A stretch of 52,402 bases of DNA from an uncultured Rhodobacterales bacterium. GTDB taxonomy: Bacteria; Pseudomonadota; Alphaproteobacteria; Rhodobacterales; Rhodobacteraceae. Both the position numbers and the translations under genes were made by a program. Under the pieces are notes generated by a model. That model was not told the origin of the DNA, did not search any database, and saw nothing but the letters and a program-made list of their open reading frames with translations. The DNA is taken from NCBI GenBank assembly GCA_964384315.1, contig CAYLLD010000001.1:5224-57625 (forward strand), read 5' to 3'. Below are positions 30-24,422 of the stretch, piece by piece. The first letter of the stretch is position 1, and each line of letters opens with the position of its first letter.

Positions 30-3000
30 CTAGGCGGCATCAAACGCCTCGATATGCAAAACAATATCTTGGAAATCATCATCGCTTGTTGCATCACGAC
101 GCTGGTCTTCGAACCCAATTTGCAAACCTTCGCCAGATAGCGATAGTCCCGAAACCACGTGTTCCATCCCATCGGCGTTAAGCTCAGCGTCATGAGATAA
201 GAAAATCGTCGACCCCAATACTTGCTCGCCATCATTGGTAAGTTGCGCACGACCAGAAGAGGTGTCGAGCCCAAGATCGCCTTGGATGAGGGTTGTGGTG
301 TCGAGTTGGTTGTAGCCGTTTTGGATAACAAAAAAGCCAAGTTTGTGGCCTTCGGTTACGTCGTCAACAGTGAAGGTTGTAGGAGCAGTCTTAATATTGC
401 CCGCCAATAGACGCACTTCATAAATCGCCCCGCTTTCATCATACTCATAAACTCCAAGTGAGTTTGAGTAGAGGGCGGTATCATCTGATGCAACGATCGT
501 GACCATGAAGTCCGAAATAGCTTCGGTACCCATGAGATAGAGGTCATTTTCGATGCCGTTGACCAAATTGTCGCCGACGCGGCCACCTTCGGTGAGCCCG
601 CCGATGAACTTATTAAAGGTCACCACGGTTTCAGCGCCATTGTAAATCGCCAAGAAACCACCGCCGGAAAATTCGCCCTGCAAGAGAATAACCTCATCAA
701 CAGTGCCGTCATTGTCACGGTCAATTCGGATTTCTTGGTTCGCCATATCGACCAATAATTTGTCTTGCTCGATCATGCCTTGCAGCGAAATGTCGTCCTC
801 TTCCGAGATCGTCGCTAGGATAGGTGCTGCAATCTCCGGTGCGACTTCCGTTAAATCGGATGACACAACCAATGGCTCAACCTCTGAGGTAATCGGGTCC
901 AAAGTTGATCCCAAAGTTGCCGCTTCGATGCGCGGTCCACCGGTAACCCCCGATAGGCCAGCGTCGAGATTTGCCACTGAAATACCACCAGAAATTTCAA
1001 CTGATGCGGAAATTCCGTTCCCATCGGCATCGGTGGTCCAGACGTCGCTATCTACGGCCTCATTGCCACCAACATTGCCGCGCATGAACCCGCGTCCATC
1101 GCGGTCGCCTTCGAATAGGACGTAATAATGTCCATCAGATAGACCGCCAAAACCATAGTAGCCGTCTGCGCTGGTGGTGGTTGATGCAACAATCAAGCCA
1201 GCGGACATCAAGATTACCCGTGCGCCAGAAACCGCATTGTCGCGCGAGCTTTCAAAACCGTCGAGATCATTATCGACAAAAAAGCGACCAGTGATTTTGC
1301 CTTCGCCGGACGTGGCAACCGAAACAGGTGTTTCATCAGGAACTGAAATTACAGGCGGAGCTATTGCTACAGCCTCAACGCCAGCATCAACGATGACGCT
1401 GGTTTGGGTACTGGATATCTCAAAGGTGCCCGAAATGCCGTTACCATCGGAATCGGTTTTCCAAACGTCGCTATCACGGCTTTCATCACCGCCCACATTG
1501 CTGCGAACAAATGCACGTCCGTTAGCGTCGGCGCCAAATTCGACATAATAATAACCGTCGTCCAGCCCTGTAAATTTGTAACCGCCATTGGCGTCGGTAG
1601 ATGTCGTTGCAACCACTTGGCCTCGACTAATCAAAGCAACGGTTGCGCCAACAACAGCGGTCTCACCAGCATCAACAAAATCATTGTTGTCGTCATCGAT
1701 GAGGTAACGGCCACTCACTTGGCCGCCTGCCACGAGTGTTTCGGGCACTTCGACAATAATTGGGGCCGAATTTTCTGCCAAAGTTTCAGGCGCTGCCGTA
1801 ACAGGAGTCTCAGGCGCTGTTGTGACAGGAGTCTCAGGCGCTGTCGTGACAGGAGTCTCAGGCGCTGTTGTGACGGGTGCGGCGGGTGCCGCCTCTGCCT
1901 CTAGGCCGAGATCAACATCGGTGATCGTTGTTCCAGACGAGACTTCATAAGTGGATGAAAATCCACGTCCTTCTGAATCCGTCTTCCAAACATCGCTATC
2001 AACCGCGTCGTTCCCGCCGACATTGCCGCGGATAAAGTCGCGGCCCTGCGCGTCGGTAGAGAACCGTACGAAATAGTAACCATCCGCAAGGCCACCAAAC
2101 GAATATGCGCCGTCACCATCAGTGAGCGTGGTTGCAACGACGCGGCCGCCGCTCATCAGTTCAACTTTGGAACCGCTAACCCCCGCCTCATCAGTGTCTT
2201 CGAGATCATTGTCGTTGGCATCAACAAAGATGCGTCCAGCAATCGATCCACCAATTTTGGCAGGCTGTGGCACGGGGCCGACGTTGGATGTCGTTGTCTC
2301 TTCAACCGTGAGGACCGGAGCAACTGGCGCAGGTTCAGGGGTCACTTCTACAAGTGCCGCTGGTTCAGAGACGCTAAGCTCAATACCTTGCTCGAATGGC
2401 TCACCATCCATGAAGCTCTTGGTGATTTGATCTGGGCCGGTGCCAGCCGCGCCCATTTCGGCAATTTGATCCGCCGACATTGCGCCGCGCAGGAAAGAGA
2501 AGTTATCGACCAAACCATCGAAACTCTGACCATAGGGGCTACCGATGTAGAGCTTATCGTTCACGCCAATTTGCGACGTCCCAACATTGTTGATCGTCTT
2601 GATGTGCTCACCGTCAAGATAGAGCGACGCGGTTTTCTCGACCCCATCAAAGGTCATCACAACGCGGTGCCAATCAGTGTTATCAATCGGCAGAAACCGC
2701 TCGTTGATCCAGTGAATGCCAGTATCCGACCCGTAGGATGCAATCAAAGCATCATTGCGAATGCTCATGGTGAAGCTATTCGAGAACCAGAACAGATCGC
2801 CCCAGTCAGACATATTGTCCTTGCGGAAATCGGCGACAACCGTGAACTCGCGGTTATTGAAGAAATCGGCGGTGTTTTCATAGGCGATGTGGCCGCCGGA
2901 AAGCTTGGCAACTTTAGAGCCGCCATCGTCAACGAATTGAACCGACCCATGTGCCACGCCAGCCATGTTATGCGGCGACGCCTCGCGCACGCCGCTATCA

Positions 3001-4466
3001 AAGCCCGTGCCAATAGCCAGAGGCAGCTCGGCATCAATGGTTTTTTGGCTCTCGATCGTGCGGCCATCTGCCAGACGGACCGTGGCCTTCACTTCGTAGA
3101 TGCCATATTCAGCATAGAAATGCGTGGTTGTAAGCTCGCTCGTCGACATCTTTTTGCCGTCGCCAAAGTCCCAGTCAACGCGGGTAATCTCGTCAGTAAT
3201 TCGGCCGTCTTCGTCAAAAAGCTCAGACAAATCAAAGCTGTGGTTGTTTAGGTAAAGACCGTCACCCGCCTCGTTTTGCAACAGGCCGTAGGGCTCTTCG
3301 GGATTGGTATCAAAATCCAAAAGACGCGAGCCGATGTTTTTACGTGCAACTGTACTGCCCGGCAGGTCCATCAAATCCGTCAAGATATCCAGATCATTGG
3401 CCAGCGGGTTCACGAAGTTGTTCGCGATATTATTATCCGAAAGCGGGTTATCGTAATTCGCGATCAGATTATTGGCTTCATAGGCACCCGAGGGTGCTAA
3501 GATTTCGGTTGTGACGTTATTGATGATCCGCACGTTGCTAGAGCCGTCAGACACGCGAATGATCGGCGGGTGCGATTTCACCTCACCATAGGCAACCGAG
3601 TAGGATTTCTCATTCACAACAATCGTGTTGTTATAGATCGTGACGCCATCGGTCTCTGCGATGGTGATCCCATGCGGGTCGTTGTTGTGGATGATGTTAT
3701 CCGTCACAACGATGTTTTTGTATTTCTTGCCCGTCGAGCCGTATTGCTCGTTGTTCAGGAAAATCGACTGCGCCGCCAAACCGTCGGCGCTATCCAGAAT
3801 ATTGTTCCGGATATAAAGGTCTTGCGTCACGCTCTCCGCACTTGTTGACCACAGTTGGATCATGTCGAGGTGGTTAATGCTGGCATCAGAGCCAAGCAGA
3901 TCGTGGATGTAGTTATTCTCGATATAGGCTTTCTGAACGCCAGCGACCTGAATCGGATCCGCCTGCATCGAGTGAAACTCATTGCCGCTGATCGTAACAT
4001 TCTCGCTCTCAAGAACGGTCACGCCAAAGAAAAAGTTCGACACAAGGTTATTTTCAAACGTCAGACCATCGGCATATTTGATGTTCGTCAAATTTCCAGC
4101 GGCCCGCTCGTTGCCGTTTTGGGACAGATACTCGGTGCCTGTGCCAACCATGACGCTGTCGCGCACGGTTACATTTTTACTATCGCGCAGATGCAGAACC
4201 ACATCAGCACCACCAAAGGCCGTGCTTTCCTCGAACCGAAGGTTTTCGAAGGTGAGGTTGTTGACGCTATAAAGTTCGACGCTCTGGAACACCGCCGGAT
4301 CATTTGGATCAGCCGAGCGGAACGTGATGCCCTGTTTGTAAATATTGTAGGGGTCCAGCCGCAATGCATAAGCAGTTTCGGACTTATTGAGCAGGATAAC
4401 ATCGCCCGGATTGGTTTGCTCAACCGCGGCAATCAGCTCTTCGTTGTTACTAACAACATATTCCAA
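30..4466 (-). CDS. Giant (1478 aa) leaderless multidomain extracellular-type protein: right-handed parallel beta-helix, PKD domain, LamG/concanavalin-like domain, 3 SdrD-B-like (Cna-B-type) repeats, C-terminal DUF4114-like domain
   Basis: One uninterrupted 1478-codon ORF with a TTG start preceded by GGAGAG. The N-terminal ~330 aa show beta-helix periodicity (NLTFENLRF, NVTVRDSV, NVTISGNEF, IYNNTIVVN). PKD signature VDWDFGDGK at aa ~430. LamG-like block at aa ~495-672. Three ~115-aa repeats of the form G(R)xFxDxNxNGxxDxxExGVxGxxVxL...TDxxGxYxFxxLxDGxYxVxF...DSDVW. The C-terminus, IGFEDQRRDATSDDDFQDIVLHIEAF, matches the DUF4114 end motif. No N-terminal hydrophobic signal. Confidence 0.85.
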   Translation of the reverse strand: MEYVVSNNEELIAAVEQTNPGDVILLNKSETAYALRLDPYNIYKQGITFRSADPNDPAVFQSVELYSVNNLTFENLRFEESTAFGGADVVLHLRDSKNVTVRDSVMVGTGTEYLSQNGNERAAGNLTNIKYADGLTFENNLVSNFFFGVTVLESENVTISGNEFHSMQADPIQVAGVQKAYIENNYIHDLLGSDASINHLDMIQLWSTSAESVTQDLYIRNNILDSADGLAAQSIFLNNEQYGSTGKKYKNIVVTDNIIHNNDPHGITIAETDGVTIYNNTIVVNEKSYSVAYGEVKSHPPIIRVSDGSSNVRIINNVTTEILAPSGAYEANNLIANYDNPLSDNNIANNFVNPLANDLDILTDLMDLPGSTVARKNIGSRLLDFDTNPEEPYGLLQNEAGDGLYLNNHSFDLSELFDEDGRITDEITRVDWDFGDGKKMSTSELTTTHFYAEYGIYEVKATVRLADGRTIESQKTIDAELPLAIGTGFDSGVREASPHNMAGVAHGSVQFVDDGGSKVAKLSGGHIAYENTADFFNNREFTVVADFRKDNMSDWGDLFWFSNSFTMSIRNDALIASYGSDTGIHWINERFLPIDNTDWHRVVMTFDGVEKTASLYLDGEHIKTINNVGTSQIGVNDKLYIGSPYGQSFDGLVDNFSFLRGAMSADQIAEMGAAGTGPDQITKSFMDGEPFEQGIELSVSEPAALVEVTPEPAPVAPVLTVEETTTSNVGPVPQPAKIGGSIAGRIFVDANDNDLEDTDEAGVSGSKVELMSGGRVVATTLTDGDGAYSFGGLADGYYFVRFSTDAQGRDFIRGNVGGNDAVDSDVWKTDSEGRGFSSTYEVSSGTTITDVDLGLEAEAAPAAPVTTAPETPVTTAPETPVTTAPETPVTAAPETLAENSAPIIVEVPETLVAGGQVSGRYLIDDDNNDFVDAGETAVVGATVALISRGQVVATTSTDANGGYKFTGLDDGYYYVEFGADANGRAFVRSNVGGDESRDSDVWKTDSDGNGISGTFEISSTQTSVIVDAGVEAVAIAPPVISVPDETPVSVATSGEGKITGRFFVDNDLDGFESSRDNAVSGARVILMSAGLIVASTTTSADGYYGFGGLSDGHYYVLFEGDRDGRGFMRGNVGGNEAVDSDVWTTDADGNGISASVEISGGISVANLDAGLSGVTGGPRIEAATLGSTLDPITSEVEPLVVSSDLTEVAPEIAAPILATISEEDDISLQGMIEQDKLLVDMANQEIRIDRDNDGTVDEVILLQGEFSGGGFLAIYNGAETVVTFNKFIGGLTEGGRVGDNLVNGIENDLYLMGTEAISDFMVTIVASDDTALYSNSLGVYEYDESGAIYEVRLLAGNIKTAPTTFTVDDVTEGHKLGFFVIQNGYNQLDTTTLIQGDLGLDTSSGRAQLTNDGEQVLGSTIFLSHDAELNADGMEHVVSGLSLSGEGLQIGFEDQRRDATSDDDFQDIVLHIEAFDAA
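1786..1881 (-). repeat. 4 x 24-bp in-frame tandem repeat encoding the (TAPETPVT)n linker inside the 1478-aa gene
   Basis: Units tcaggcgctg(c/t)(c/t)gt(a/g)acaggagtc at 1786, 1810, 1834 and 1858, differing by 1-3 nt. They translate on the minus strand to TTAPETPVTTAPETPVTTAPETPVTAAPET. Confidence 0.9.
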
Positions 4467-5231: not shown

Positions 5232-6833
5232 ATGGTCGCCTATCAAGAAGAAACCAAGACCAATTGGCTCGCGGACCTTGCAGCCAACCGCTATGGTATG
5301 TTCTGGTTTTTGCTGCTTGTTGCGTCATCAATCCCAATATTCTGGCTTGGCTTTGTTTCATTGGGCGATGCTTGGTCGACGCCCGAATACAGCCACGGGC
5401 CGATTATCCCGTTGTTGTCATTCTATATGTTTCTGCGCGAAATGCGTCAGGTGCCTGCCGATCAAAGTGTAAAACGCCGCTGGCCCGGTGTTTTAATCAT
5501 CGGCCTCGCCCTATCCGTCGCTATTTTTGGCAACCTCACACGCATCCCCGACATCGTCACCTACGCTTTTATACTTTGGGTCGCGGGGGTGATTCTGCTC
5601 TGTTTCGGCTGGTCTCGTGGGCTGTTTTTCTGGACTGGCGTGCTGCATCTCGTTTACATGCTGCCCCTGCCGCAATTCCTCTATTGGAAACTCACGATCT
5701 GGCTGCAGCTTGTGTCATCGGAATTGGGGGTTTGGTTCATCCGGCTCATGGGCATCCCGGTGTTCCTCGAAGGCAATGTTATCGATCTGGGTGTCTACAA
5801 ACTTCAGGTGGCCGAGGCCTGTTCGGGCCTCCAGTACCTTTTCCCAATTCTGTCATTTTCTTACGTGTTTTGCGTGCTTTACAATGGGCCGATCTGGCAT
5901 CGCATTGTGATTTTGCTCGCCGCGGCGCCCATCACGGTTTTGATGAATTCATTTCGCATCGGCATGATTGGGGTTTTGGTAAATTACTTTGGCATCTCCC
6001 ACGCCGAGGGTTTTTTGCACTACTTCGAAGGTTGGGTGATCTTCGGTGCTTGCGTGGCGATCCTATTTATCCTCGCGGTCCTGATGCAGCGGCTTCAACG
6101 CAATCCAAAGCCCTTGGCCGAAACCCTCGACATTGAGTTCGCAGGCACTGGCCCACAGCTCGCCCGTATCTTTTCCATACCCCTGACAGGTTTGCTGACA
6201 ACGGCCGCCCTCGCCACTTTTGCGCTCAGCGCGCTTTGGCTGGCCGGACCGCAACGAGAAATCGAGCGCCCGACCCGTGAGCCCTTCGGCGTATTTCCAT
6301 TGGGTCTTGAAACCTGGAGCGGAGATACATCCCCGTTGGAACCGTCGGTTGAGACGGTGCTGGGTGCGGACGACTATATACAGGCCACTTTCTTTGGGCC
6401 GGGCGAGCCCGCTTCGGTGGGGTTCTTTGCCGCCTATTATCACAAGCAAACCGAAGGTTCGGGCATTCACAGCCCCGAGGTTTGTCTGCCTGTGGGCGGC
6501 TGGGAGATGTTCGACATTCAGCAGGTAGAGGTCGATCTTGAGCCCCAGACTGGCTGGCCACCTTTTCAAACCAACCGAGCGGTGATTCAAAAGGGGTTGG
6601 ATCGGATGCTCGTCTATTATTGGTTTGAACAACGCGGCAAACGCATGACCAACGATTTTTCCGTTAAGCTCTCAACGGTCCGTGACAGTCTAGTTCTAGG
6701 CCGCTCTGACGGGGCATTGGTTCGCTTTACGACGCCAATGGACCGCGAAGAGAGCGTTGCGAGCGCAGAGGCACGCATCCAACGGCTGGTTGCTGAAGTT
6801 TTACCGCATCTTGATCGCTACCTACCCCATTAA
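5232..6833 (+). CDS. Exosortase (EpsH/Xrt family) fused to a C-terminal EpsI-family periplasmic domain
   Basis: ATG preceded by GGAG. Polytopic membrane N-terminal part with exosortase hallmarks: WSTPEYSHGPIIP, catalytic Cys in VAEACSGLQYLF (Cys197, nt 5820-5822), NSFRIG, and His-rich ISHAEGFLHYFEGW. The C-terminal ~200 aa (from ~nt 6234) are EpsI-like: FPLGLETWSGD, LGADDYIQATF, GIHSPEVCLPVGGWE, LVYYWFEQRGKR, GALVRFTTP. Confidence 0.88.
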   Translation: MVAYQEETKTNWLADLAANRYGMFWFLLLVASSIPIFWLGFVSLGDAWSTPEYSHGPIIPLLSFYMFLREMRQVPADQSVKRRWPGVLIIGLALSVAIFGNLTRIPDIVTYAFILWVAGVILLCFGWSRGLFFWTGVLHLVYMLPLPQFLYWKLTIWLQLVSSELGVWFIRLMGIPVFLEGNVIDLGVYKLQVAEACSGLQYLFPILSFSYVFCVLYNGPIWHRIVILLAAAPITVLMNSFRIGMIGVLVNYFGISHAEGFLHYFEGWVIFGACVAILFILAVLMQRLQRNPKPLAETLDIEFAGTGPQLARIFSIPLTGLLTTAALATFALSALWLAGPQREIERPTREPFGVFPLGLETWSGDTSPLEPSVETVLGADDYIQATFFGPGEPASVGFFAAYYHKQTEGSGIHSPEVCLPVGGWEMFDIQQVEVDLEPQTGWPPFQTNRAVIQKGLDRMLVYYWFEQRGKRMTNDFSVKLSTVRDSLVLGRSDGALVRFTTPMDREESVASAEARIQRLVAEVLPHLDRYLPH

Positions 6834-7039: not shown

Positions 7040-9523
7040 TTACAATATCCAGTCATCGCTGCTGTTATAGACAGCGCCATTTGCCAGCTCGACACCCGCA
7101 TCCGCATGGCGCATCGAGGTGTTGTCATCGACAAAGTACGAGCTGGAAACACCCACTTCGCCGTTTACGCGCCACACATCGCTGTCGATCTGATCATTTC
7201 CGCCAACATTGCCGCGGATAAAATCAAACCGATCCGGCTCGTCAAATGAAACCGAATACCAACCATCGTCTAGTCCGGTGAAGGCATAGGCACCATTTTC
7301 GCCGGTTCTCGTGGTGGCCACAGTTTGCCCGCCGCGCGTTAATGAAACACTAGCACCAAAAACACCGGGTTCGTTGGGGTCTTCGAACTCATCCCCATCA
7401 CGATTGATAAACATTCGCCCAGAAATGACCCCGCCACCTGTAGGCGGCGCAGGTGTCGGGATAGTTGGTGCATTGACCGTACCGCCCGTCCCCAAAAGGC
7501 CCGCATCGAGATCTAGTTCTGATCTAGTCGAAGAAATTTGATACTTTGCCGCCTCGCCATTGCCGTTGATGGTGCGCCAAACATCACTGTCAAAATTGTC
7601 TTCGCCGCCAACATTTACGCGGGAAAATTCGCGGCCGGTCTGCTCTTCGAAGAGCGCCCCGTACCAACCATCGGACAGCCCCGTGAAACTGTAAGCGCCA
7701 TTGCCATCAGTTGTTGTCGTCTCGACAACTTGAGATCCGCGGACCAAAGAGATTGTGGCCCCGGCCACGCCGGTTTCGCCATTATCCTCGCGTCCATTCT
7801 CATTGGCGTCGTTGAAATAGCGCCCGGCCAGAGTGCCACCACCTGCTGGAGGTGTTGGTGCGGGGGGTGTTGGTGCGGGGGGTGTTGGCGTGCCACCGCC
7901 ATTGCCCGAACCCACTAAGCCCGCGTCTAGATCAACCTCGGAGCGAGAAGATGAAATCTGATACTTCGCCGCCTCGCCATTGCCGTTAATCGTACGCCAC
8001 ACATCGCTATCAAAATCGTCATTTGCTGCGTTGACGCGCACAAAGTCGCGACCTGCTTGGGTTTCAAACAAGGCACCGTACCAGCCATCGGACAGCCCAG
8101 TGAAACTATAGGCTCCATTTCCATCGGTGGTGGTTGTGGCAACAACTTGTGACCCTCTTACCAAAGAAATTGTCGCACCTGAGACCCCAGTTTCACCTGC
8201 GTCTTCGCGATTATTCCCATTTTCGTCATTAAAATAACGTCCGGCCAACGTTCCACCGCCAGGTTGAGTTGGCGGTGTTGGGGCCGGTGGCGTTGGGGTT
8301 GGCGGTGTTGGGGTAGGTGTCGTGCTCACCGCGGGCTCAATACCAGCATCCGCATGGCGCATCGAGTTTGAACCGTTGACCAAATACGAACTCGTCACCC
8401 CAACGCCGCCCGCGCCCGTGGTCCAAACATCGCTATCGATCAGATCATTCGATCCGGTATTGCCGCGGACAAAACTGCGACCATTGGCATCCTCTTCGAA
8501 ATGGGCAGCATAATAGCCATTGCTCAAATTATCGAAGCTATAGCGGCCATTTGAATCAGTCGTCGTCGTGTCGACCACCTGCCCGCTGCGCACGAGTGAA
8601 ACTGTTGTGCCCGACACGCCAGGCTCGCCCGCGTCTTCGAGATTATTCCCATTCTCGTCTAACCAAAGGCGCCCAGCCAAAGTGCCATCTTCTGAAGACG
8701 GCGGCGTTGGGGCAGGCGGTGTAGGTTCCGGTGGGGTTGGACGTGCCGCGTTGCCTTCCAGCGGAATTGCGTGGCTTGCATGCGCATCGGCTGCAATTGA
8801 CTGCATCAACTCAGCATCTGACCGCGATACGCCTCGGGGCAGATATTCAGAAGGGCTTGGCGGAGTTTCATTAAAGACCGTCCAATAGAAAACATTCGCC
8901 TGCATATAGGACAAAAGAGCAGTGGCGTGTACCTCGTCTTCGGTCAAAATCCGTTCGGCGGTTTCCCCGTTGTCGCCATTTCCATATCGCGCGGTAATTG
9001 CTTTGTAAGCTTCGGAATAGGCCAGTCCAGCCGGTGCCAAGGCGGCATCATTGCGAATGGCGGTGCTTCGATAAAGGGCTTGAATGTCAGTTCCGAATGG
9101 GTCGCCTGCATTCAGCCGGTTCAAGTCAACCATCCAGTCGCCAGGCCAGTTTGTGTGCATCACTAACTGGCCGCCGTTTGCCTCAACCAAGTTGGAAAAG
9201 CGTGCGGCATAGGTGTTGAATTCGGCAATCCGCGATTGGTCTAAGTTGCGACCGTCGTGCATTTGCGTGGGGAGTGCGCCAAGAATGACAACATCATACT
9301 TGCCGCTGCGAATTTCATCCTGCGCGGCCATATAGCCAACGTCTTCCCAATGCGCGCGCAGGTTCGCACCACCGCGGTCAGACAAGGATGTTGTGACATC
9401 GTGACCGCCGCGTCGGGCGAGGTCTTCGAACTGATCGATTGTGCGTAAATTTACGTCGTTATTCGGACGGAAATAAACAAATGAATTCGATACAAAAAGG
9501 ACTTCCAACGTCTCACTCCCCAA
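7040..9523 (-). CDS. Leaderless 827-aa protein: N-terminal SGNH/GDSL-type hydrolase domain (DUF4886-like) followed by 4 SdrD-B-like repeats separated by Pro/Thr-rich linkers
   Basis: TTG start with a stop just upstream, so no room for a signal peptide. SGNH blocks are present: LFVSNSFVYF (Ser), VVILGA, and DEVH (DxxH) at aa 196-199. Four ~115-aa repeats end in DSDVW. Linkers are RPTPPEPTPPAPTPP, TPTPTPPTPTPPAPTPP and TPTPPAPTPPAPTPP. The protein ends in SSDDWIL. Confidence 0.85.
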   Translation of the reverse strand: MGSETLEVLFVSNSFVYFRPNNDVNLRTIDQFEDLARRGGHDVTTSLSDRGGANLRAHWEDVGYMAAQDEIRSGKYDVVILGALPTQMHDGRNLDQSRIAEFNTYAARFSNLVEANGGQLVMHTNWPGDWMVDLNRLNAGDPFGTDIQALYRSTAIRNDAALAPAGLAYSEAYKAITARYGNGDNGETAERILTEDEVHATALLSYMQANVFYWTVFNETPPSPSEYLPRGVSRSDAELMQSIAADAHASHAIPLEGNAARPTPPEPTPPAPTPPSSEDGTLAGRLWLDENGNNLEDAGEPGVSGTTVSLVRSGQVVDTTTTDSNGRYSFDNLSNGYYAAHFEEDANGRSFVRGNTGSNDLIDSDVWTTGAGGVGVTSSYLVNGSNSMRHADAGIEPAVSTTPTPTPPTPTPPAPTPPTQPGGGTLAGRYFNDENGNNREDAGETGVSGATISLVRGSQVVATTTTDGNGAYSFTGLSDGWYGALFETQAGRDFVRVNAANDDFDSDVWRTINGNGEAAKYQISSSRSEVDLDAGLVGSGNGGGTPTPPAPTPPAPTPPAGGGTLAGRYFNDANENGREDNGETGVAGATISLVRGSQVVETTTTDGNGAYSFTGLSDGWYGALFEEQTGREFSRVNVGGEDNFDSDVWRTINGNGEAAKYQISSTRSELDLDAGLLGTGGTVNAPTIPTPAPPTGGGVISGRMFINRDGDEFEDPNEPGVFGASVSLTRGGQTVATTRTGENGAYAFTGLDDGWYSVSFDEPDRFDFIRGNVGGNDQIDSDVWRVNGEVGVSSSYFVDDNTSMRHADAGVELANGAVYNSSDDWIL
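7427..8260 (-). repeat. Tandem duplication (2 x 417 bp) of one SdrD-B repeat plus PT linker inside the 827-aa gene
   Basis: Protein aa 422-560 and aa 561-699 are near identical. Shared strings include GGGTLAGRYFND, GATISLVRGSQVV, TTTTDGNGAYSFTGLSDGWYGALFE, FDSDVWRTINGNGEAAKYQISS. At DNA level the copies are offset by 416-417 nt (for example 7511 versus 7927). Confidence 0.85.
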
Positions 9524-9709: not shown

Positions 9710-12484
9710 TTAGCCGATCCAATCGTTTTGGTTTGCATCAATCGCGTAGCGCGAAGCAACATCATCAGCGATATCTTGCATCAGCCTTGCATCAGCAGTG
9801 GACACACCACCAGGGCGATACTCAGATGTATCTGGCGCGTCTTCATTCATCAAAGTTTCGAACAAGACGTTCGCGGCAAGATACGCACCTATCGAGTCAG
9901 CATGGATGGCATCGACCGTCAAAATTGCCTCAGCTTTCTCGCCATTGTCGCCATACCGCTTGGACAACTCAGCATGTGCCGATGCCATCGCAAGACCGTT
10001 GGGCGCGTAATAGGCGTTATTCGCACTGGCCGTTGACCTGTAAACATCATGCGCCTCGGGCGAGAAGGTGTCGCCACCTCGAACGTCGATCTGCCAATCG
10101 CCAGCCCAGATGCCATAAAACACAGTTTCTGCGCCATTGGCATCGGCCAGATCAGTGAATTTGTCCGCGTAGTTCTTGAACTCGGCAACGCCACTTGTTG
10201 ACTCGATATTCTTATTGCTGCCCTGAAGGACGACCAGATCGATATCACCTGACTTGATGATACGCTGTGCATCCGATGTGTCCCAAAGCTTCTTGAGCGG
10301 CGACCCACCAATATAAGCGCTTTGATAAGTTACATCGTAACCAGCAACATCCAACATGGCGAGGAAATGCCCTTCTGGACTTTCCGATTTGTCCCCATTG
10401 GGGGCGAAGTAGGTATAGCTATTGCCCACGAACAAAATCGACATTTCTTTCTCGCCACTTTGCGGTGTCGGCGTGGGTTTTGGTGTCGGAGTCGGAGTTG
10501 GTGTCGGATCAGGCGTAGGCGCGTTCTTAACCACAATACCAGCGTCGGTATTATAGAAAGACTTACCACCGCTTACATCGCGATAGTCCGCTTCACCCCA
10601 ATTACCCGAGGTTTTCCAGACATCGCTGTCGATTGAGTCATTGCCGCCAGTATTGGTGCGCGTGAACTCGTAGGAAGACGAGGGCAACTGAAACTCAACG
10701 CGATAACCACCATCTTCAAGGCCCGAGAACTTATAGTTACCGTTTCCGTCCGTCTTGGTTGTCGTGACAGTGCGCCCAGATTGCGTCAAACGCACGGTAG
10801 CTCCGGACACGGCGCTATCGCTGCTGTCCTCGATCCCGTCCGAGTCTTCATCGTAGAAAAAGCGGCCTGCAATCGCACCATTTTTCACAACAACTTCAAC
10901 AGGTTCAGGCGTTGGCGTTGTTTGCTTTGACTTGATGCCAGCGTCGACATTGCTAACCGAAGACCCGTTCTTGACTTCGTAGTTTCCAGTCAGGCCAAAC
11001 CCGCCTGAATCTTTCCATACATCACTGTCGTTCGCGTCGTTGCCACCAGCATTGGTCCGGGCAAAATCATTGCTACCGCCTGGCTTGGCGAACTGAACAG
11101 CATACCAACCATCATCGAGATCGGAGAACTTATATTTACCGTTTCCGTCAGTCTTAGACGTCGCAACAACTTTTCCGTTTTGAAGCAAACGCACTTGGGC
11201 GCCAGAAAGGCCGCTATCGCCACCGTTCTCTGTATCCGAGCCATCTCTATCCCAGAAATACCGGCCCTCGAGTGATCCCGCAGATTTGGCAGGAACAGGT
11301 GTCGGCACCGGCTCGACGGATGTTTTTGATAGCAAACCGGCATCGACATTTGAAACCGTACTGCCATTTTTAACTTGGAACGACGTCGTCCGGCCATCGT
11401 TATTTGATGTGGTCCAAACGTCGCTGTCGACTGTGTCACTGGTCGCATTTCCGCGCGTGAATTTATAAGCACTGGAAATCAGGTCAAACTCAACCCCGTA
11501 CCAGCCGTCGGGCAGGTTATCGAAGCTGTAATCGCCGTTGCCATTGGTTTTCGTCGTGGCGATTACTTTGCCGCTTTGCATAAGACGAACTGTCGCCCCG
11601 GACACACCGCTATCGCCGCCATCTTCGCTGGCCGATCCGTTCCGATCAAAGAAATAACGCCCCTTTAGAGTTCCATCTTCCGACAACTTAATCGGTGACG
11701 GCTCAGGTGAACGCTCTTCAGCGTGTTTGGCGCTGTGCAAACCCGCATCTACATCGGAAACTGTGTTACCGTTCTTGATAACGACCTGACTTGATACACC
11801 AGTGCCGTTTGAGTTGGTTTTCCAAACGTCACTATCGACCGCGTCGTTTGAACCCACATTAGTCCGTGCAAAACTTGCGCCGTTAACGCTACCGAACTCA
11901 ACCGAATATCCGCCATCTTCAAGCCCGGTGAATTGGTAGTTACCACTTCCGTCGGTTTTGGATGTCGCAACAACTCTGCCGTCTTTGATCAGTCGGACGG
12001 TCGCGCCGGACACGCCACTATCGCCGCCATCCTGTTTGTCAGACCTGTTGTTGTCATAGAAATACTGACCTTTGACCACGCCTTTACCATCGGACGCGCG
12101 TGTCTGCGTGACGCTTGTGTTTGATGAGGGGACGATCGCTGCATCAATATCACTTACGTAAGAGCCGCGGCCAACATAGAACGAGCCGGAAATGCCTGCG
12201 CCGGAACCATCGGTCTTCCAAACGTCGCTATCTAGACGCTCATCGCGACCAACACCGGTTCGGGCGAACTGGCTGCCATATTCTGACTTAGAAAACTTGA
12301 CGTAGTGGTAACCTTGATCGACGTCAGAAAAGCGGTAGTTCCCGCTAGAATCCGTACGCGTTGTCGCAACCAGGTTCGAGCCCTGATAAAGATAGACGGT
12401 GGCACCGGGGATCCCGATGTCTGAACTGTCTTCGACATTCGTACCGTTCTTGTCGATGAAATAACGGCCTGCAACTGTAGACAT
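9710..12484 (-). CDS. Leaderless 924-aa protein: 5 SdrD-B-like repeats, a PT linker, then a C-terminal SGNH/GDSL-type hydrolase domain (paralog of the N-terminal domain of the 827-aa protein)
   Basis: The protein begins directly inside repeat 1 (MSTVAGRYFIDKNGTNVEDSSD...). There are five repeats ending DSDVWK/T. The linker is APTPDPTPTPTPTPKPTPTPQ. The SGNH domain has ILFVGNSYTYF, VVLQGSN and DAIH (DxxH). It ends in NQNDWIG. Confidence 0.85.
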   Translation of the reverse strand: MSTVAGRYFIDKNGTNVEDSSDIGIPGATVYLYQGSNLVATTRTDSSGNYRFSDVDQGYHYVKFSKSEYGSQFARTGVGRDERLDSDVWKTDGSGAGISGSFYVGRGSYVSDIDAAIVPSSNTSVTQTRASDGKGVVKGQYFYDNNRSDKQDGGDSGVSGATVRLIKDGRVVATSKTDGSGNYQFTGLEDGGYSVEFGSVNGASFARTNVGSNDAVDSDVWKTNSNGTGVSSQVVIKNGNTVSDVDAGLHSAKHAEERSPEPSPIKLSEDGTLKGRYFFDRNGSASEDGGDSGVSGATVRLMQSGKVIATTKTNGNGDYSFDNLPDGWYGVEFDLISSAYKFTRGNATSDTVDSDVWTTSNNDGRTTSFQVKNGSTVSNVDAGLLSKTSVEPVPTPVPAKSAGSLEGRYFWDRDGSDTENGGDSGLSGAQVRLLQNGKVVATSKTDGNGKYKFSDLDDGWYAVQFAKPGGSNDFARTNAGGNDANDSDVWKDSGGFGLTGNYEVKNGSSVSNVDAGIKSKQTTPTPEPVEVVVKNGAIAGRFFYDEDSDGIEDSSDSAVSGATVRLTQSGRTVTTTKTDGNGNYKFSGLEDGGYRVEFQLPSSSYEFTRTNTGGNDSIDSDVWKTSGNWGEADYRDVSGGKSFYNTDAGIVVKNAPTPDPTPTPTPTPKPTPTPQSGEKEMSILFVGNSYTYFAPNGDKSESPEGHFLAMLDVAGYDVTYQSAYIGGSPLKKLWDTSDAQRIIKSGDIDLVVLQGSNKNIESTSGVAEFKNYADKFTDLADANGAETVFYGIWAGDWQIDVRGGDTFSPEAHDVYRSTASANNAYYAPNGLAMASAHAELSKRYGDNGEKAEAILTVDAIHADSIGAYLAANVLFETLMNEDAPDTSEYRPGGVSTADARLMQDIADDVASRYAIDANQNDWIG

Positions 12485-13095: not shown

Positions 13096-14103
13096 TTAGG
13101 CGATTTTCTTTTTGATATCGCGGCTCGGCGGCAGCATCAGCATACCGCGGATTGCTGCGCCTGCAGGCGCAAATTGGCCTCGGATCAACATTTGCGCAAT
13201 TTTACCAGCGTTGAACGCAACGGCAATCGGTAGGGCGATCGGCTTGAATTCTGCGATAAATCGCTGGCGAGACCGGGCCATGAAGTAAGAGGCCAGTTTA
13301 GACGGGGCCTTATCGAAAGAATGCGAGCCGATAACAGTTCCAGCGATGTGATGGATCGAACTGGTCTGGCAGTACTTCAGCGGCAAATCACCCCGATTTA
13401 GGCACCAAGAGACCTCATCATAGTAGATGAAATAGTGCTCGGGCATCGGACCGGCGACATCAAGAAACTCGCGGCTGACGAGCATATGCGCGCCCATGAC
13501 GTAATCCATGTCTTCGCCGCGAGGCGTAGGCGCCTCGCTGCCCTCTACGTAGGCATTCAAGTTTGAACACACACCCGTCCATAGGTTTACGCAACCGCCA
13601 TCTGATTGGATCGTCGTGGGCGGGCGAAGATAGTAAACGCGGCCCCCGATTGCGCCAAAGCGGCCTGCGTTATCCGCGTATTTTTTAAATTCAGCGGCAG
13701 AGTCGTTCAGAACCACAGAATCTGGGTTCAAAATCCAGAAATAGTCGATGTCGTCCATCGCCTTGAAGGCCTCGCAGCCCTTGTTGACCGCATAGGCATA
13801 ACCGCCGTTCTTGCCCGAATGCCAGAGCGTGATCTGACCTTCAGGGATATGTTTGGGCATTTCATGAGTTTCGACATAGGGGAGAGCGCCATGTTCGATG
13901 GGCTCAAACGGCATATCGTCGCTTTTTTGCCAAGTCCGCCGACCCTCTGCCCAGTCGCGGATTAGCTCGACCGTGTTATCTTTGCTTTCGTTATCCACCA
14001 CCAGAATGCGAACGTCACACCCATGAGAGGCAATAACACTTTCCAAACAATCGAGGATTTCTTCGCCCGTGTTGTAAGTCACAATGACAAGGCCAAGAGC
14101 CAT
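13096..14103 (-). CDS. Family 2 glycosyltransferase (rhamnosyltransferase-like GT-A fold)
   Basis: N-terminus LGLVIVTYNTGEEILDCLESV...VVDNESKDNT, then NGGYAYAVNKG and WILNPDSV (DxD-like), typical of GT2. Confidence 0.8.
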   Translation of the reverse strand: MALGLVIVTYNTGEEILDCLESVIASHGCDVRILVVDNESKDNTVELIRDWAEGRRTWQKSDDMPFEPIEHGALPYVETHEMPKHIPEGQITLWHSGKNGGYAYAVNKGCEAFKAMDDIDYFWILNPDSVVLNDSAAEFKKYADNAGRFGAIGGRVYYLRPPTTIQSDGGCVNLWTGVCSNLNAYVEGSEAPTPRGEDMDYVMGAHMLVSREFLDVAGPMPEHYFIYYDEVSWCLNRGDLPLKYCQTSSIHHIAGTVIGSHSFDKAPSKLASYFMARSRQRFIAEFKPIALPIAVAFNAGKIAQMLIRGQFAPAGAAIRGMLMLPPSRDIKKKIA

Positions 14104-14147
14104 GGGAATTCCTTACTTAAAACTTTAAAAATTGCCGCTAGAAAGAG

Positions 14148-14177
14148 CAATTGGCGCCATATCTTTGGCGCCAATTG
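14148..14177 (-). promoter_or_regulatory. Perfect 11-bp inverted repeat (CAATTGGCGCC-N8-GGCGCCAATTG) between the oxygenase and GT2 genes; hairpin (attenuator or weak terminator) or operator
   Basis: Read directly from the sequence. It lies 9 nt after the oxygenase stop and 45 nt before the GT2 start. A moderately T-rich tract (CTCTTTCT) follows it on the minus strand. Confidence 0.3.
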
Positions 14178-14185
14178 TCTTAAGC

Positions 14186-15001
14186 TTAGGCTTTTTCGTC
14201 GTAGACTTGTGAAGCTGTCTCGACGTCGGCGCGTTTGCGGATCAGATCCAGCACCGCCTCATCAGATTTTTGATCTTCGGTTGGGGCGAACAAAGCTTTG
14301 CCGCGATCATCTACATCTGCCGGTGGGTGGCACAAATAGTAAACCGCGAGACTTTTGCGCGATTGGCCATCTGGGCAAGTCAGTGGATCGGGCAGGCCGT
14401 GCCAGCTATTTTGCGTGGTATCAAACACCGCTGCGCGGTTGAATACTGGCTCAATTTGCTTTTCCAAGGCACCTGGTGCCTCGTCGGTTTCATTGCCCCA
14501 AAGGCCAAGGCTGCCGCCCCATGAATTTTGCCAATTTGGGTTCATGTAAACAATGATGTTAACTTTGCGCTGCAGGCCCAATTTCGGGTGCAGCGAGTAA
14601 TCCAAATGGGTGTTTAGCTTGCCGCCCTTGGTGTGGATATGCCAGCCGCCACCGTTTAGGCCGCTATCGGCAAAAAGCTCCATTCCACCAAACAAACGAT
14701 CGGACAAAAGCTTTACGAACTCCGCCGAGTTCAACATGTTGAATGCTTTGTAAGTCTCGGGCCTGAAATCGTTCCAGATGTTGCAAACCTTTTTGATTTC
14801 AATTGGGTTTGCGTATTTGTGCCAAAGCTCATCGTCGAATTCAGGGAATTCAGACTCTAGCTTTTGCGCAACATCCGGCGTGAAAAAGTTGTCGATGACC
14901 ATGTGGTCAAAGGGGCCTTCTTTGCCCCAAGTCTTTGCCGCTTCAACAATCCCGTCGACATTAAAATATGCCTTCAGTTCATCACTCACATCATCTGCCA
15001 T
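14186..15001 (-). CDS. 2OG-Fe(II) oxygenase of the prolyl-4-hydroxylase / Tpa1-OGFOD1-like type
   Basis: Internal ATG at 15001 with GGAGAAG upstream; the longer ORF up to 15103 has no RBS support. Motifs: PFDHMVIDNFF, the HxD iron ligands in NTHLDYS, IIVYMNPNW..WGGSLGLW, the distal His in NSWHGLP, and the 2OG-binding RKSLAVYY. Confidence 0.75.
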   Translation of the reverse strand: MADDVSDELKAYFNVDGIVEAAKTWGKEGPFDHMVIDNFFTPDVAQKLESEFPEFDDELWHKYANPIEIKKVCNIWNDFRPETYKAFNMLNSAEFVKLLSDRLFGGMELFADSGLNGGGWHIHTKGGKLNTHLDYSLHPKLGLQRKVNIIVYMNPNWQNSWGGSLGLWGNETDEAPGALEKQIEPVFNRAAVFDTTQNSWHGLPDPLTCPDGQSRKSLAVYYLCHPPADVDDRGKALFAPTEDQKSDEAVLDLIRKRADVETASQVYDEKA

Positions 15002-15260
15002 CGTTACTTCTCCGAGATCCTGTTCTTTGCCTTCGGTGTACCTAGGGCAGCATGTATTTCTATTCTGCAGGTTCGACAACTTTTTTTGAAACCCCCCACA
15101 CATATACCCTGCAAACTTGGCAGGTTTGCACCAAAAGCGCTCTCGCGAGGCCTTAATAGGCCGAAAAGTACTAATAACCGGGAAATTTGTGACGCTCTAC
15201 GTCAATTTTTTGGAATTCTATCGACACCATTTTTTCGATTAACCGCGTCACTCCCGCGAA

Positions 15261-16040
15261 CTATGCGTCCAAATTGCGGTTGATCTTACGTAAACCCGCC
15301 CGTGCTTTTAGCTCTGCCATTATGCCAAGCTGGCTGCCACGAAACTCTCGCCCAATGTTTAGATCCTGCGGCTCGCCAACGAGCGGCCCCTTTTGTGCGG
15401 CTTTAAGCACGTCGATGTAAGACCGCGTACCCGCCAGCACAGCACGCGCGAAAACCGCATGGAGCCCGTCACCTTTGACAAGCTGCGCCTGCTGGGTCGC
15501 AAAGATGCGCCCACCGTCCACATCCGATGTACATTCATGCACCGTCGCACCGATCATATGCGGCTCATTGAAGGCGAGCGGCCAAAAGGCGCAAGCGACG
15601 CCGCGATACCAAGGGCTAAGGCCCGTGTGCATATTCAGTGCAACCGTGCCCGCAAGTTCCAGCACATCGTCGGGGATGATCCCGGTGCCATAAATCGCTA
15701 GAACATCTGGTGTCTCAGCGCGCAACTGCTCGGCCAAGACCCCGGCGCGGGGGCGACCTACGCGTGATACAAGATCATCGCGTTTGATGGCATGGCTATC
15801 CTCGCCCAGAACCGTGATCAAAGCGGCATCGCGTGCTGCCGCATCGCCGATGAGTTTCAAATAGAGGCTGCGCAGGGTCTTGGAGACAAAGCGTCCCGGC
15901 GTTGCGCGCAGCATCTTTTTCCACGACCGTGGCGGGGTTGGATCGCAAACAAAAATCGCGGCGACATCCATTGCCGCACAAATCTGGTTCGTGACATAAT
16001 TATGGGCGGGGCTATCGCCGGTGATGATGACGGTTTTCAT
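15261..16040 (-). CDS. Formyltransferase-family protein (N-terminal Fmt/PurN/ArnA-type catalytic domain only)
   Basis: MKTVIITGDS..., ALNMHTGLSPWYRGV (NxHxSxLPxxRG-like), GATVHECTSDVDGGRIF (catalytic His...Asp). Confidence 0.75.
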   Translation of the reverse strand: MKTVIITGDSPAHNYVTNQICAAMDVAAIFVCDPTPPRSWKKMLRATPGRFVSKTLRSLYLKLIGDAAARDAALITVLGEDSHAIKRDDLVSRVGRPRAGVLAEQLRAETPDVLAIYGTGIIPDDVLELAGTVALNMHTGLSPWYRGVACAFWPLAFNEPHMIGATVHECTSDVDGGRIFATQQAQLVKGDGLHAVFARAVLAGTRSYIDVLKAAQKGPLVGEPQDLNIGREFRGSQLGIMAELKARAGLRKINRNLDA

Positions 16041-16043
16041 AGA

Positions 16044-16943
16044 TCAAAAGCCCATACGATGGCGCAAACTGCGTAGCCTTGGTTTGACACCCAAATGCAG
16101 GTTGAGCTGCGCAGGCGTTTCGTCGTGCAAAGAGGTTCGATACCAGATGTCTGGGGCCGGACGGTGCGTGTTTGCGCGGGCATGTACAAGAAAAATCGCG
16201 CTGTGACCGGTTTCGCGCAAAGCCTTGAGCACAGTGGCAGGCAGATCAGTTTCATGGCCATAGGGCACTGAAAACGAACGTATTTTTTTCTGTGTCATCT
16301 CTTCTAACATCGCTTTGGACGCGACGATTTCGCTTTCGATCTCTGCGGCATTAAGGGCGCGGCAATGCACGTGACTGGTGGTATGATTGCCCACTTCGAC
16401 GCCATAATCCGCAAGCGCAGCTAGCTCGTTTCGGGTCAAAAGCGGTGCCCTTGGGCCAAGATCAAGCGGGCCGAATGCCTCGATAATCCGCGCCTTGACC
16501 GCCTCACGCGCCACGGCCCCAAGCCGGGCCATATCGCCAACAACCAAATCCGCAATATTCTCGCGCTCTGGCACATCAATCGCCCGGCACAATTCACCAA
16601 CGCCATGCTCATTCGCCGCATAGGCAATCGCACTGTCGAGGGACAGGTCAGGCACGCCCACAAGCCCCGGGTTCACAAAAAACACCGAGGGCAAACCAGC
16701 AGGGGCCAAAACCTCGCGCGCCATGTCATGGACCGAGGCAAAAGCATCATCAAAAGTGATCAAAAGCGGCTTTTTGGGCAGCTTTCCATTAATCAACGTC
16801 TCAAGATCGATGACATCGAAATCACGGCTCACCCGTGCAACTTGCGCCTCAAAGGCCGCACGCGTGCTGGCCACACCCAGCCCCCGTTCGAAACTGGATT
16901 CCGGCCCGATGTGATGATGCAGCGTGCAAATTGGTGCCGCCAT
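16044..16943 (-). CDS. Polysaccharide deacetylase (NodB-homology, CE4-like; ArnD-like size)
   Basis: LLITFDDAFASV (TFDD motif) and GNHTTSHVH (HxxxH). The stop lies 3 nt before the formyltransferase start. Confidence 0.78.
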   Translation of the reverse strand: MAAPICTLHHHIGPESSFERGLGVASTRAAFEAQVARVSRDFDVIDLETLINGKLPKKPLLITFDDAFASVHDMAREVLAPAGLPSVFFVNPGLVGVPDLSLDSAIAYAANEHGVGELCRAIDVPERENIADLVVGDMARLGAVAREAVKARIIEAFGPLDLGPRAPLLTRNELAALADYGVEVGNHTTSHVHCRALNAAEIESEIVASKAMLEEMTQKKIRSFSVPYGHETDLPATVLKALRETGHSAIFLVHARANTHRPAPDIWYRTSLHDETPAQLNLHLGVKPRLRSLRHRMGF

Positions 16944-17092
16944 TTACGGGCCCCCTAGATATTATTATCAAAACCAGCCGTACAATTATGGCACGACAGA
17001 TTCATCACCATTTTTCAGAATTTCGTTGATTCTTTCTAAGAGGCATGACGATTTTTGAAAAAAACTGGTCAGTGCAATCTAAATGAGGCGTC

Positions 17093-18163
17093 TTAAGAAG
17101 ACGTCATCTGATTGATCTGGGCCAATTCAGCCTCAAGCACAGGGGCGTCAAGATCAAGATCTTGGGCGATTTGTTCAAAGCGCCAACGCCAATCCAGCTT
17201 TTTGAGCGCCATTTTCTGATTATGGCGCGCCAATTCAGGGGTCCAAGTTGACAGCGCCTCTTTCAGCGCCGCCAGTCCTTCGGCTCGATTATTGGCCGAG
17301 ACGTCCAAAAGCGCCTCAGGCCAAAGTTCGTGACGGGCGGCAAAATCCGTGCGCGGGGGAATGCCAGCAACAATCGCACCAGCGCCCAGCGCATCGGTCC
17401 ACCGCGACGTGATGTATTCTTTTGTGCCGTGGGTGTATTTCGAGCCATCGACCAAATTGGAATGAGCCAGCAAGAACCGGGCGCGGCGCATAAAGCCTGC
17501 GTTCAATTTCACAACTTCGGTTGGGTCATCCAAATAGGGCGGGCGGCCATGGAACGTTAGACCTTCGGCCTGACACGCCGCCGCGGTTTTCTCATCATCT
17601 TCCCAAACCGGTGGCTGACGGCCCATCCGCAGCAAATCTAGATCTTTCGTCAGCGTCGGATCGTCAAAACCACCAAGTTTCAAGGCATCGGTGCCGAAAC
17701 TCAGATAGCTCGTTTGAACGCCAGTTTTCTTGGTAATGTAGTCAACGTCATTGCCGCTGGTGACGTAAAAATGGTCAAATTTGCCACGCAGCCCAAGCTT
17801 GGGGAAGCGTTCGGTCCAGAAACTATCGATGATCCACGCATAGACCCGCCGGAACCCAAGCCGCCAATCCGGCAGTTCGGACAGCAGCAAAAGATGCTGC
17901 GGCGATGGGGCAATCAAAAGCAGATCACGACCTGTCTTTTGCCCTTTGCGCGACATGAAAGGATAAAGAACTTTCGAGGCTTTAATCGTATGACCATCGG
18001 TGTAGTTCACCGGCGCGCTCAAGCTTTCGCCCAACAGACCAACCATATGGTCAATCGGCGCCCAACCATGGCGGCCCGGTTTACAATACACAATTTCAAG
18101 CTCGGCCTGCTGATTTGCATCAGCATACTCATCGCGGCCAAAATCTAACGCTTGGTCAAACAT
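17093..18163 (-). CDS. Uncharacterised 356-aa cytoplasmic protein, possibly a GT-B-fold (Glyco_trans_1_2/CgeB-like) glycosyltransferase
   Basis: Start chosen at the ATG at 18163 with AGGAAG upstream. The C-terminal half (KEYITSRWTDALGAGAIVAGIPP...) resembles the nucleotide-sugar-binding half of GT-B enzymes. There is no TM segment or signal. Functional assignment is weak. Confidence 0.55.
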   Translation of the reverse strand: MFDQALDFGRDEYADANQQAELEIVYCKPGRHGWAPIDHMVGLLGESLSAPVNYTDGHTIKASKVLYPFMSRKGQKTGRDLLLIAPSPQHLLLLSELPDWRLGFRRVYAWIIDSFWTERFPKLGLRGKFDHFYVTSGNDVDYITKKTGVQTSYLSFGTDALKLGGFDDPTLTKDLDLLRMGRQPPVWEDDEKTAAACQAEGLTFHGRPPYLDDPTEVVKLNAGFMRRARFLLAHSNLVDGSKYTHGTKEYITSRWTDALGAGAIVAGIPPRTDFAARHELWPEALLDVSANNRAEGLAALKEALSTWTPELARHNQKMALKKLDWRWRFEQIAQDLDLDAPVLEAELAQINQMTSS

Positions 18164-18597
18164 TTTCTTCCTACGGTCCATTACACCACACTGGCACCAA
18201 AACATTTAGGCGGCACTTCAAGATCGTCACGCTCACTCAGAAGATTCGACATTCTATTGGGGTTTTTGCCGAACCGTCGCCTTGGTGCAAGTGACTGGAC
18301 GATATTCTGCCTAATTATTTTAAATGCCTCATGGCAACGATTCTGCCATGACCTTTATTTAAGCAAAAATTAGTACAAATTCACGCCACTCCCCCCCCAC
18401 AAGCAGTATTGAGCAGAAACTCGCTTTTGTACTTACCCAGTTCTAGAGTGCTAATTGGACAGAATCTTGGTGTTATTGATAGAAATGAGATGGTTTTTTT
18501 GGAAAACTTAACCTCAATCTGCTCAGGTGCGACAAGAGGCGGTCCGCTCTATCGGATCACGTTGCAAACTCAGGGCCAATCGCGCTAACAGAATTAT

Positions 18598-20118: not shown

Positions 20119-20239
20119 GTATTTGGTGCCCTATTTACCAAAGATGCGCACTTTTATGATGATGAACGATGGACCCAATGAGACGCGCGCCGTATAGGCG
20201 GCGCATCGACCAATCCCAAAGGCGCAAGAACCGGAACCC

Positions 20240-20815
20240 ATGTCGAATTTATTAGAAGTCACCCCGACGCAAATCCCTGATGTTGTTATTCTAAAAGCCC
20301 GCCGCTTCGGCGATGATCGTGGCTTTTTCTCCGAGCCATGGAACCGCGCCCGCATGCGCGAAGTGGGCTTGTCGATGGATTTCGTTCAGGACAACCATTC
20401 CTTTTCGGCCATCAAAGGCACCGTGCGCGGGCTGCACTATCAGGCCCCGCCCTTTGCGCAGGACAAACTGGTGCGGGTGACGCGCGGCGCGGTGATGGAC
20501 GTTGCCGTCGACGCGCGCAAAGGCTCCCCCACTTTTGGCAAATGGGTGGGCGTTGAACTATCGGCGGAAAATGGGCTGGCGCTTTTGGTGCCCAAGGGCT
20601 TTCTGCATGGCTTCGCAACACTGACGCCGGATGTCGATTTCTCTTACAAATGCACCGATTACTACAACCCTGAATGCGAAGGATCGGTTTATTTCGCCGA
20701 CCCTGACTTGGGCATTGACTGGGGCGTTGAGGCGGATCTTGACGCGCTTTCGGGCAAAGATCGCGCGGATCAGGCGTCGTCTTGGGCCGCATTCGATAGC
20801 CCGTTTACTTACTAA
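20240..20815 (+). CDS. rfbC: dTDP-4-dehydrorhamnose 3,5-epimerase
   Basis: IPDVVILKARRFGDDRGFFSE, RGLHYQ, QDKLVRVTRGAVMDVAVD, LVPKGFLHGF, YKCTDYY: classic RmlC motifs. Confidence 0.93.
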   Translation: MSNLLEVTPTQIPDVVILKARRFGDDRGFFSEPWNRARMREVGLSMDFVQDNHSFSAIKGTVRGLHYQAPPFAQDKLVRVTRGAVMDVAVDARKGSPTFGKWVGVELSAENGLALLVPKGFLHGFATLTPDVDFSYKCTDYYNPECEGSVYFADPDLGIDWGVEADLDALSGKDRADQASSWAAFDSPFTY

Positions 20816-20828
20816 GGAGCACTGAGCG

Positions 20829-21866: not shown

Positions 21867-21877
21867 GCGCGCATCAG

Positions 21878-24225: not shown

Positions 24226-24422
24226 GGACACTTCCTGAGCGCTTTTCGGGCACCGGCTTGGACGCAAATCTCACAGACCTAAACCGGGCACTATCGCTGC
24301 ATTTTATCTTTGTCATAGCGTAAAGGATCACTTCAGGCATCGTACGGCGGTCATCGTACGGTGCTTATGCTAGACGAGCAACGGTCTCGGAAAATACCCC
24401 GCGGATACCTCTATGAAAGCAC

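Follow-up and report, generated by a model that had tools for sequence, protein, structure and literature searches.

Gene Content of the Locus

The window analysed in this study is a DNA stretch of 52,402 bp. One ORF on the forward strand (5232..6833, +) encodes a 533-aa protein, which was annotated as xrtD, a VPLPA-CTERM-specific exosortase with a fused EpsI domain (TIGR04152, PF09721, PF11984). The gene is flanked on both sides by large leaderless repeat proteins encoded on the reverse strand. NCBIfam and Pfam scans showed that an exopolysaccharide (EPS) or O-antigen-type gene block (13096..25871) lies further downstream. This block encodes a GT2 glycosyltransferase (13096-14103), a 2OG-Fe oxygenase (14186-15103), a formyltransferase (15261-16040), a polysaccharide deacetylase (16044-16943), a product of unknown type (17093-18205), a Wzy_C-like polymerase (18598-20118), RmlC (20240-20815), RmlB (20829-21866), a leaderless cadherin-like protein of 676 aa (22237-24267, reverse strand), and a MOP flippase (24423-25871). 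From 26 kb on, the genes are of the housekeeping type, namely a MoCoBD molybdopterin oxidoreductase (26070-28472), lpxB, lpxI, lpxA, bamA, tsf, rpsB, and infB. The EPS block thus stops where the housekeeping genes begin, so that XrtD belongs to an EPS island that adjoins a conserved gene cluster of the chromosome. The window gave no match to any RNA family in Rfam.

The N-terminus of the 676-aa protein is weakly cadherin/Big_9-like, and the rest of the protein contains no domain that could be recognised. Its homologues adjoin the flippase gene in two loci of relatives, L083 (44%) and L001, and its first 100 aa recur in the loci L084, L085, and L087. A LuxR-type regulator is encoded at 41058-41813 (+), 34 kb from xrtD and among the housekeeping genes. 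It scored 61 bits against the PA1136-family autoinducer-binding model TIGR03541 (cutoff 215.6) and, more weakly, 48 bits against the XrtB/PEP-CTERM-associated EpsA model TIGR03020 (cutoff 170), and both matches are sub-threshold.

The XrtD Protein

The N-terminal half of XrtD is a polytopic exosortase (EpsH) membrane domain at aa 35-282 (5334..6077, +), which scored 217 bits against Pfam Exosortase_EpsH (PF09721). Hydropathy analysis showed several hydrophobic segments in this half and another at about aa 313-339, just ahead of EpsI. The EpsI/DUF3485 domain occupies aa 326-530 (6207..6821, +), with 183 bits against PF11984 and 122.6 bits against the EpsI_fam model TIGR02914 (cutoff 42.8). The candidate catalytic residues on the forward strand are Cys197 (nt 5820-5822) in QVAEACSGL, Arg242 (5955-5957) in LMNSFRIGMIG, and His263 (6018-6020) in ISHAEGFLHYFEGW. 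All three are invariant in an alignment of 14 sequences, comprising the window XrtD and 13 homologues with 58-79% identity, as are about 190 further positions. The exosortase hallmarks (the EACSG cysteine, the NSFRIG arginine, and a group of histidines) and the fused EpsI-like domain had been named in a preliminary description of the locus, and both are borne out.

The protein scored 663.1 bits against the NCBIfam model TIGR04152, "VPLPA-CTERM-specific exosortase XrtD", for which the cutoff is 400. The match takes in every model position (1-486 of 486, XrtD aa 44-532). The exosortase/archaeosortase signature TIGR04178 was also found (67 bits, cutoff 23). The next best model, XrtW (NF038142), matches both domains of the protein as the XrtD model does, but its score of 249 bits is far under the cutoff of 425. 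XrtA (139 bits, cutoff 208) and XrtV (124 bits, cutoff 313) also fall well short of theirs. The superfamily and the catalytic signature are common to the window XrtD, to XrtW, and to the classical PEP-CTERM/EpsH system of XrtA with a separate EpsI (TIGR03109/TIGR02914). In XrtA systems EpsI is usually encoded by its own gene, and the cargo motif is PEP. The exosortase-EpsI fusion is no peculiarity of the window, because TIGR04152 itself spans the EpsI part and this architecture defines XrtD.

More than 7900 database proteins match the window XrtD at E ≤ 1e-20. Both Pfam domains are present in all 120 top homologues listed, and many of these are named XrtD by NCBI or JGI and come from Rhodobacterales genera. 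Homologues annotated as xrtD by RefSeq are also carried by 25 Rhodobacterales plasmids in PLSDB. A protein lookup with the exact window protein, at full length and from Met23, found no identical record. A literature search on VPLPA-CTERM, XrtD, and Rhodobacterales exosortases found nothing specific.

Judged from its sequence, the window gene is a canonical member of the already described XrtD family of marine Rhodobacterales. It agrees with TIGR04152 XrtD in the exosortase with fused EpsI, the Cys/Arg/His residues, the EPS locus, and the Rhodobacterales relatives. Nothing that defines the family differs. Named species reach no more than 58-70% identity. The family is already known, and the gene is an ordinary member of it.

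Leaderless Repeat Proteins Beside xrtD

Three giant proteins are encoded on the reverse strand. The first (30..4466, -) has 1478 aa and, according to Pfam, contains a right-handed beta-helix, PKD, Laminin_G_3, three SdrD_B domains, and a C-terminal DUF4114. The second (7040..9523, -; Pfam) has 827 aa, with an N-terminal DUF4886-like (SGNH-like) domain followed by four SdrD_B domains. The third (9710..12484, -) has 924 aa and the reverse order, with five SdrD_B domains (Pfam SdrD_B, 307 bits) followed by a C-terminal DUF4886-like domain. The N-terminal domain of the 827-aa protein and the C-terminal domain of the 924-aa protein are 40% identical and paralogous. In its maximal ORF, each of the three giants lacks both an N-terminal hydrophobic segment or signal peptide and a C-terminal transmembrane (TM) segment, in agreement with the preliminary description. 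The SGNH label given there to the neighbours is plausible, but the 924-aa protein scored 24.2 bits (E = 2e-5) against Pfam DUF4886, an SGNH-like family, which is slightly under the cutoff of 26.7. The beta-helix N-terminus, the DUF4886-like domain, and the 676-aa protein had no significant counterpart in sequence searches of the PDB. The 1478-aa protein is probably extracellular and either acts on polysaccharide or is adhesive.

Within the 1478-aa gene, positions 1600-1900 of the window encode short tandem Pro/Thr-rich linkers (TTAPETPV, three full copies and further partial ones) between the SdrD_B domains. In the 827-aa and 924-aa proteins, the linkers are of the PTPxP type. The window and the nearly identical contig L081 both stop a few bases beyond the stop codon of the 1478-aa gene, which suggests an assembly break.

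The C-termini of the two SdrD_B/DUF4886-like proteins (window 7040-7060 and 9710-9730) and of their orthologues in a relative (L082 3614-6172 and 6252-9017) are DDWIL, NDWIG, YDFIV, and SDWFA, with the common pattern D-[W/F]-[I/F]-x. Certain type I secretion substrates typically carry an acidic residue and then hydrophobic ones at the extreme C-terminus. Because the C-termini of the giants are acidic and then aromatic and hydrophobic, type I secretion would be the likeliest route for them, and we infer that they are exported independently of Sec, probably by such a system. No gene for a type I secretion ABC protein or HlyD was found in the window, which counts against this part of our explanation, and Pfam gave no HemolysinCabind match for RTX nonapeptide repeats in the giants. 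Type I secretion genes are present in certain XrtD EPS clusters, those of plasmid pOT1-6 (L090) and L053. In the search of the relatives' loci, an ABC match was obtained in four, and ABC and HlyD together only in L053.

The glycanases PlyA, PlyB, and ExsH of rhizobia are leaderless, calcium-binding, EPS-modifying enzymes of alphaproteobacteria that are secreted by type I systems. The giants resemble them in the lack of a leader, the location in an EPS cluster, the modules of a carbohydrate-acting type (beta-helix and DUF4886/SGNH-like), the calcium-binding repeats, and the acidic-hydrophobic C-termini. They differ from them in the lack of RTX repeats and of type I secretion genes in the window, and the likeness is one of resemblance only.

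Sorting Signals in the Window and in Relatives

The preliminary description had stated that no listed ORF in the window ends with a CTERM sorting signal, and this was upheld by three different scans. A motif rule found no CTERM sorting tail in the six frames of the 52 kb. A tail HMM was built from 40 tails of relatives, in which it gave 42 matches at E < 1e-4. Its best match in the 52 kb had E = 0.11 and lay in a non-coding frame. The third scan, which was motif-free, looked for ORF ends with a hydrophobic stretch and basic residues after it, and found nothing credible in the 52 kb.

The comparison set consisted of XrtD loci with flanks of up to 10 kb from 80 species genomes, the best matches listed (1.4 Mb). 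Almost all of these 80 are Rhodobacterales or Paracoccaceae, and a few are MAG records with other or higher-rank labels. Their XrtD proteins are 57-70% identical to that of the window. The closest genomes among the matches listed have XrtD proteins of 67-70% identity, and none among the matches listed is conspecific.

Of the 80 species loci, 29 have a VPLPA-CTERM gene no more than about 10 kb from XrtD (42 genes). Among the loci with full flanks, the proportion was 16 of 40. Nine of the relatives' tails were checked against the VPLPA-CTERM model TIGR03370, of which five were above the cutoff and the rest below. The annotated xrtD of plasmid pOT1-6 belongs to an EPS cluster. A VPLPA-CTERM gene is located about 5 kb from it, and type I secretion genes are nearby. 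These data show that the XrtD family is genuinely associated with VPLPA-CTERM proteins. They also show that about 60% of the species examined have no VPLPA-CTERM gene within 10 kb of xrtD. Given these counts, the absence of nearby cargo is the majority state and is not unusual.

Comparison of the Locus with Its Relatives

The closest locus, L081, is a JGI contig (sample 3300001201, BBAY86) with the same arrangement as the window and 99.4-99.8% nucleotide identity to it. With an identity of about 99.5%, it represents the population of the window itself. The xrtD gene of L081 has an in-frame deletion of 63 bp (window 6570-6632 versus L081 6526-6530). The deletion removes 21 residues of the EpsI domain (QTNRAVIQKGLDRMLVYYWFE), including the invariant YYWFE, and has a short CAA microhomology at its borders.

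In L082, whose XrtD is 79% identical, both SdrD_B/DUF4886-like genes are kept, with 59% identity for the 827-aa protein and 61% for the 924-aa protein. This is the only locus outside the window population with orthologues of the two. L082 also keeps the GT2, oxygenase, formyltransferase, and deacetylase genes, and glmS replaces the 1478-aa giant upstream. The SdrD_B/DUF4886 pair has therefore stayed next to XrtD over a divergence to 79% identity, which shows some persistence within the lineage and counts against our preferred explanation. At 75% XrtD identity, L083 has no repeat protein nearby.

L089, also with an XrtD of 75% identity, has a different gene directly after xrtD. It encodes a metalloprotease-like protein of 227 aa (L089 7612-8295, -) with the zinc-protease motif HEIGHALGADH (HExxHxxGxxH), which ends in VPVPFSILALGSGLAGLVMVGWRRRK, that is, a VPVPFS motif, a TM segment, and RRRK. 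This tail was missed by the VPLPA tail HMM and gave a sub-threshold match (E = 0.006) to an NCBIfam PEP-CTERM family. About 2 kb past this gene, L089 has a MoCoBD orthologue, 81% identical to the gene at 26070-28472 in the window. As the MoCoBD gene follows there too, L089 represents the same chromosomal site with other island content. A metagenome scan with the L089 metalloprotease-like protein found no relative. Another metagenome scan, with the exact 28-mer of the left end of the window, gave no match.

In the two relatives with 75% identity, xrtD has a small conserved ORF of 59-79 aa immediately downstream (L083 11663-11842, -; L089 7280-7519, -). The product of this ORF contains a single hydrophobic segment, and its C-terminus shows the pattern ...Y.(R)P..QA. 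There is no counterpart in the window.

XrtD of L084, L085, and L087 (71-74% identity) lies in an EPS cluster with a GT2 gene, a Wzy-like gene, and a large beta-helix/PKD/Laminin_G protein. The replication and partition genes RPA, ParA, and ParB adjoin the XrtD EPS cluster in L084 (13152-17665) and L085 (14744-19220), so the cluster is probably located on a plasmid or chromid there. In contrast to this plasmid-type context, the XrtD cluster of the window is chromosomal, beside lpxB-lpxI-lpxA-bamA. L084 and L085 also encode an unrelated SdrD_B/cadherin protein about 8 kb from XrtD, beyond the plasmid rep/par genes.

SdrD_B genes adjoin XrtD only in L081 and L082, and are not next to it in L083, L087, and L089. 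An HMM built from the twelve SdrD_B repeats of the window found a match in one of the 80 species loci (L047), in agreement with tblastn. The linkage of SdrD_B proteins to XrtD is shallow and lineage-specific. Eight of the 80 species loci and four of the seven close relatives have the beta-helix N-terminal module of the 1478-aa protein near XrtD. The homologues are mostly leaderless, two have signal peptides, and a CTERM tail is lacking in all of them. The beta-helix protein recurs in XrtD EPS clusters but is not universal there.

Interpretation

We consider it very likely that the window carries a canonical XrtD in a variable EPS island and that its cargo is encoded elsewhere. The leaderless giants are probably passengers exported by another route. 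The exosortase mechanism as described here follows by analogy from the family and from the names of the NCBIfam models. XrtD would be a transpeptidase-like membrane domain with Cys, Arg, and His, permanently fused to EpsI. As a member of its family, it is expected to recognise Sec-exported proteins whose tail combines a VPLPA-type motif, a TM helix, and a basic cluster, and to remove or process this tail at the membrane in the context of exopolysaccharide production. The gene is located at the margin of an EPS island that evolves fast, spans about 0-26 kb of the window, and is inserted next to the housekeeping genes around lpx and bamA. As in the majority of relatives, the cargo would be encoded at other places in the genome. 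The three SdrD_B giants are probably lineage-specific passengers of the island, and their beta-helix and DUF4886/SGNH-like modules suggest calcium-binding extracellular enzymes or adhesins, with a Sec-independent and likely type I export.

The preliminary description had left two alternatives, cargo encoded elsewhere or a non-canonical set of partners, for example the polysaccharide pathway or proteins delivered by another route. The former is favoured by the evidence, since XrtD matches its family model at full length and above the cutoff and the cargo of relatives is mostly more than 10 kb off. In the latter, an XrtD that has no CTERM cargo would have as its target either the polysaccharide pathway or the leaderless SdrD_B/DUF4886 proteins, which would reach it by another route; we consider this highly unlikely. 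The lack of a CTERM tail in the 52 kb, the SdrD_B pair directly downstream of XrtD in the 79% relative, and the return of the beta-helix/PKD/LamG giant in the XrtD EPS clusters of the clade are consistent with it. The giants, however, have no TM helix or basic tail for an exosortase to recognise, and common membership in EPS clusters explains the recurrence of the beta-helix protein equally well. The linkage to the SdrD_B pair is gone at 75% identity and lacking in 79 of the 80 species loci, while a CTERM-tailed gene adjoins XrtD in the closest clade (L089). The catalytic and EpsI residues of the window XrtD are also constrained as in the cargo-bearing relatives. A more specific form is that the XrtD EPS island acquired the DUF4886-like/SdrD_B pair and the beta-helix/PKD/LamG/SdrD_B/DUF4114 giant as proteins working with XrtD, for example as esterases or glycanases that modify the matrix and stay in a polysaccharide layer dependent on XrtD, or, more radically, that XrtD works without any CTERM cargo; this too is very improbable. 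A score of 663 bits against the cutoff of 400 and the lack of a conserved linkage to SdrD_B/SGNH proteins both argue for an ordinary EPS-associated exosortase.

Two other readings concern the cargo signal and the state of the gene. The cargo may exist with a diverged tail such as VPVPFS, which falls under the standard VPLPA and PEP-CTERM cutoffs and would make the genome seem cargo-less. The L089 tail, missed by the VPLPA HMM and reaching only E = 0.006 against an NCBIfam PEP-CTERM family, and the several tails of relatives under the TIGR03370 cutoff point in this direction. This reading is a variant of the main explanation, not a different mechanism, and it concerns only the genome beyond the window, because the motif-free scan found nothing credible inside; we regard it as improbable. 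That xrtD is a relic, no longer functional in this population, would agree with the loss of the YYWFE residues in the 99.5% identical L081, but the window copy is intact and of full length, keeps every invariant column of the family, and scores far above the TIGR04152 cutoff. An assembly artefact or a minor defective allele could account for the L081 deletion, and we consider a relic extremely unlikely.

A canonical XrtD with its cargo elsewhere thus remains the explanation that we prefer, and no new mechanism is needed, because a neighbourhood without cargo is normal for XrtD in Rhodobacterales. The XrtD islands are highly variable and often contain leaderless beta-helix proteins. The comparison removes a false lead, in that an exosortase-EpsI fusion without nearby cargo is the normal state of Rhodobacterales XrtD. 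As a by-product, it gives a rough figure for the family, namely that xrtD has a VPLPA-CTERM gene within 10 kb in only about 36-40% of species.
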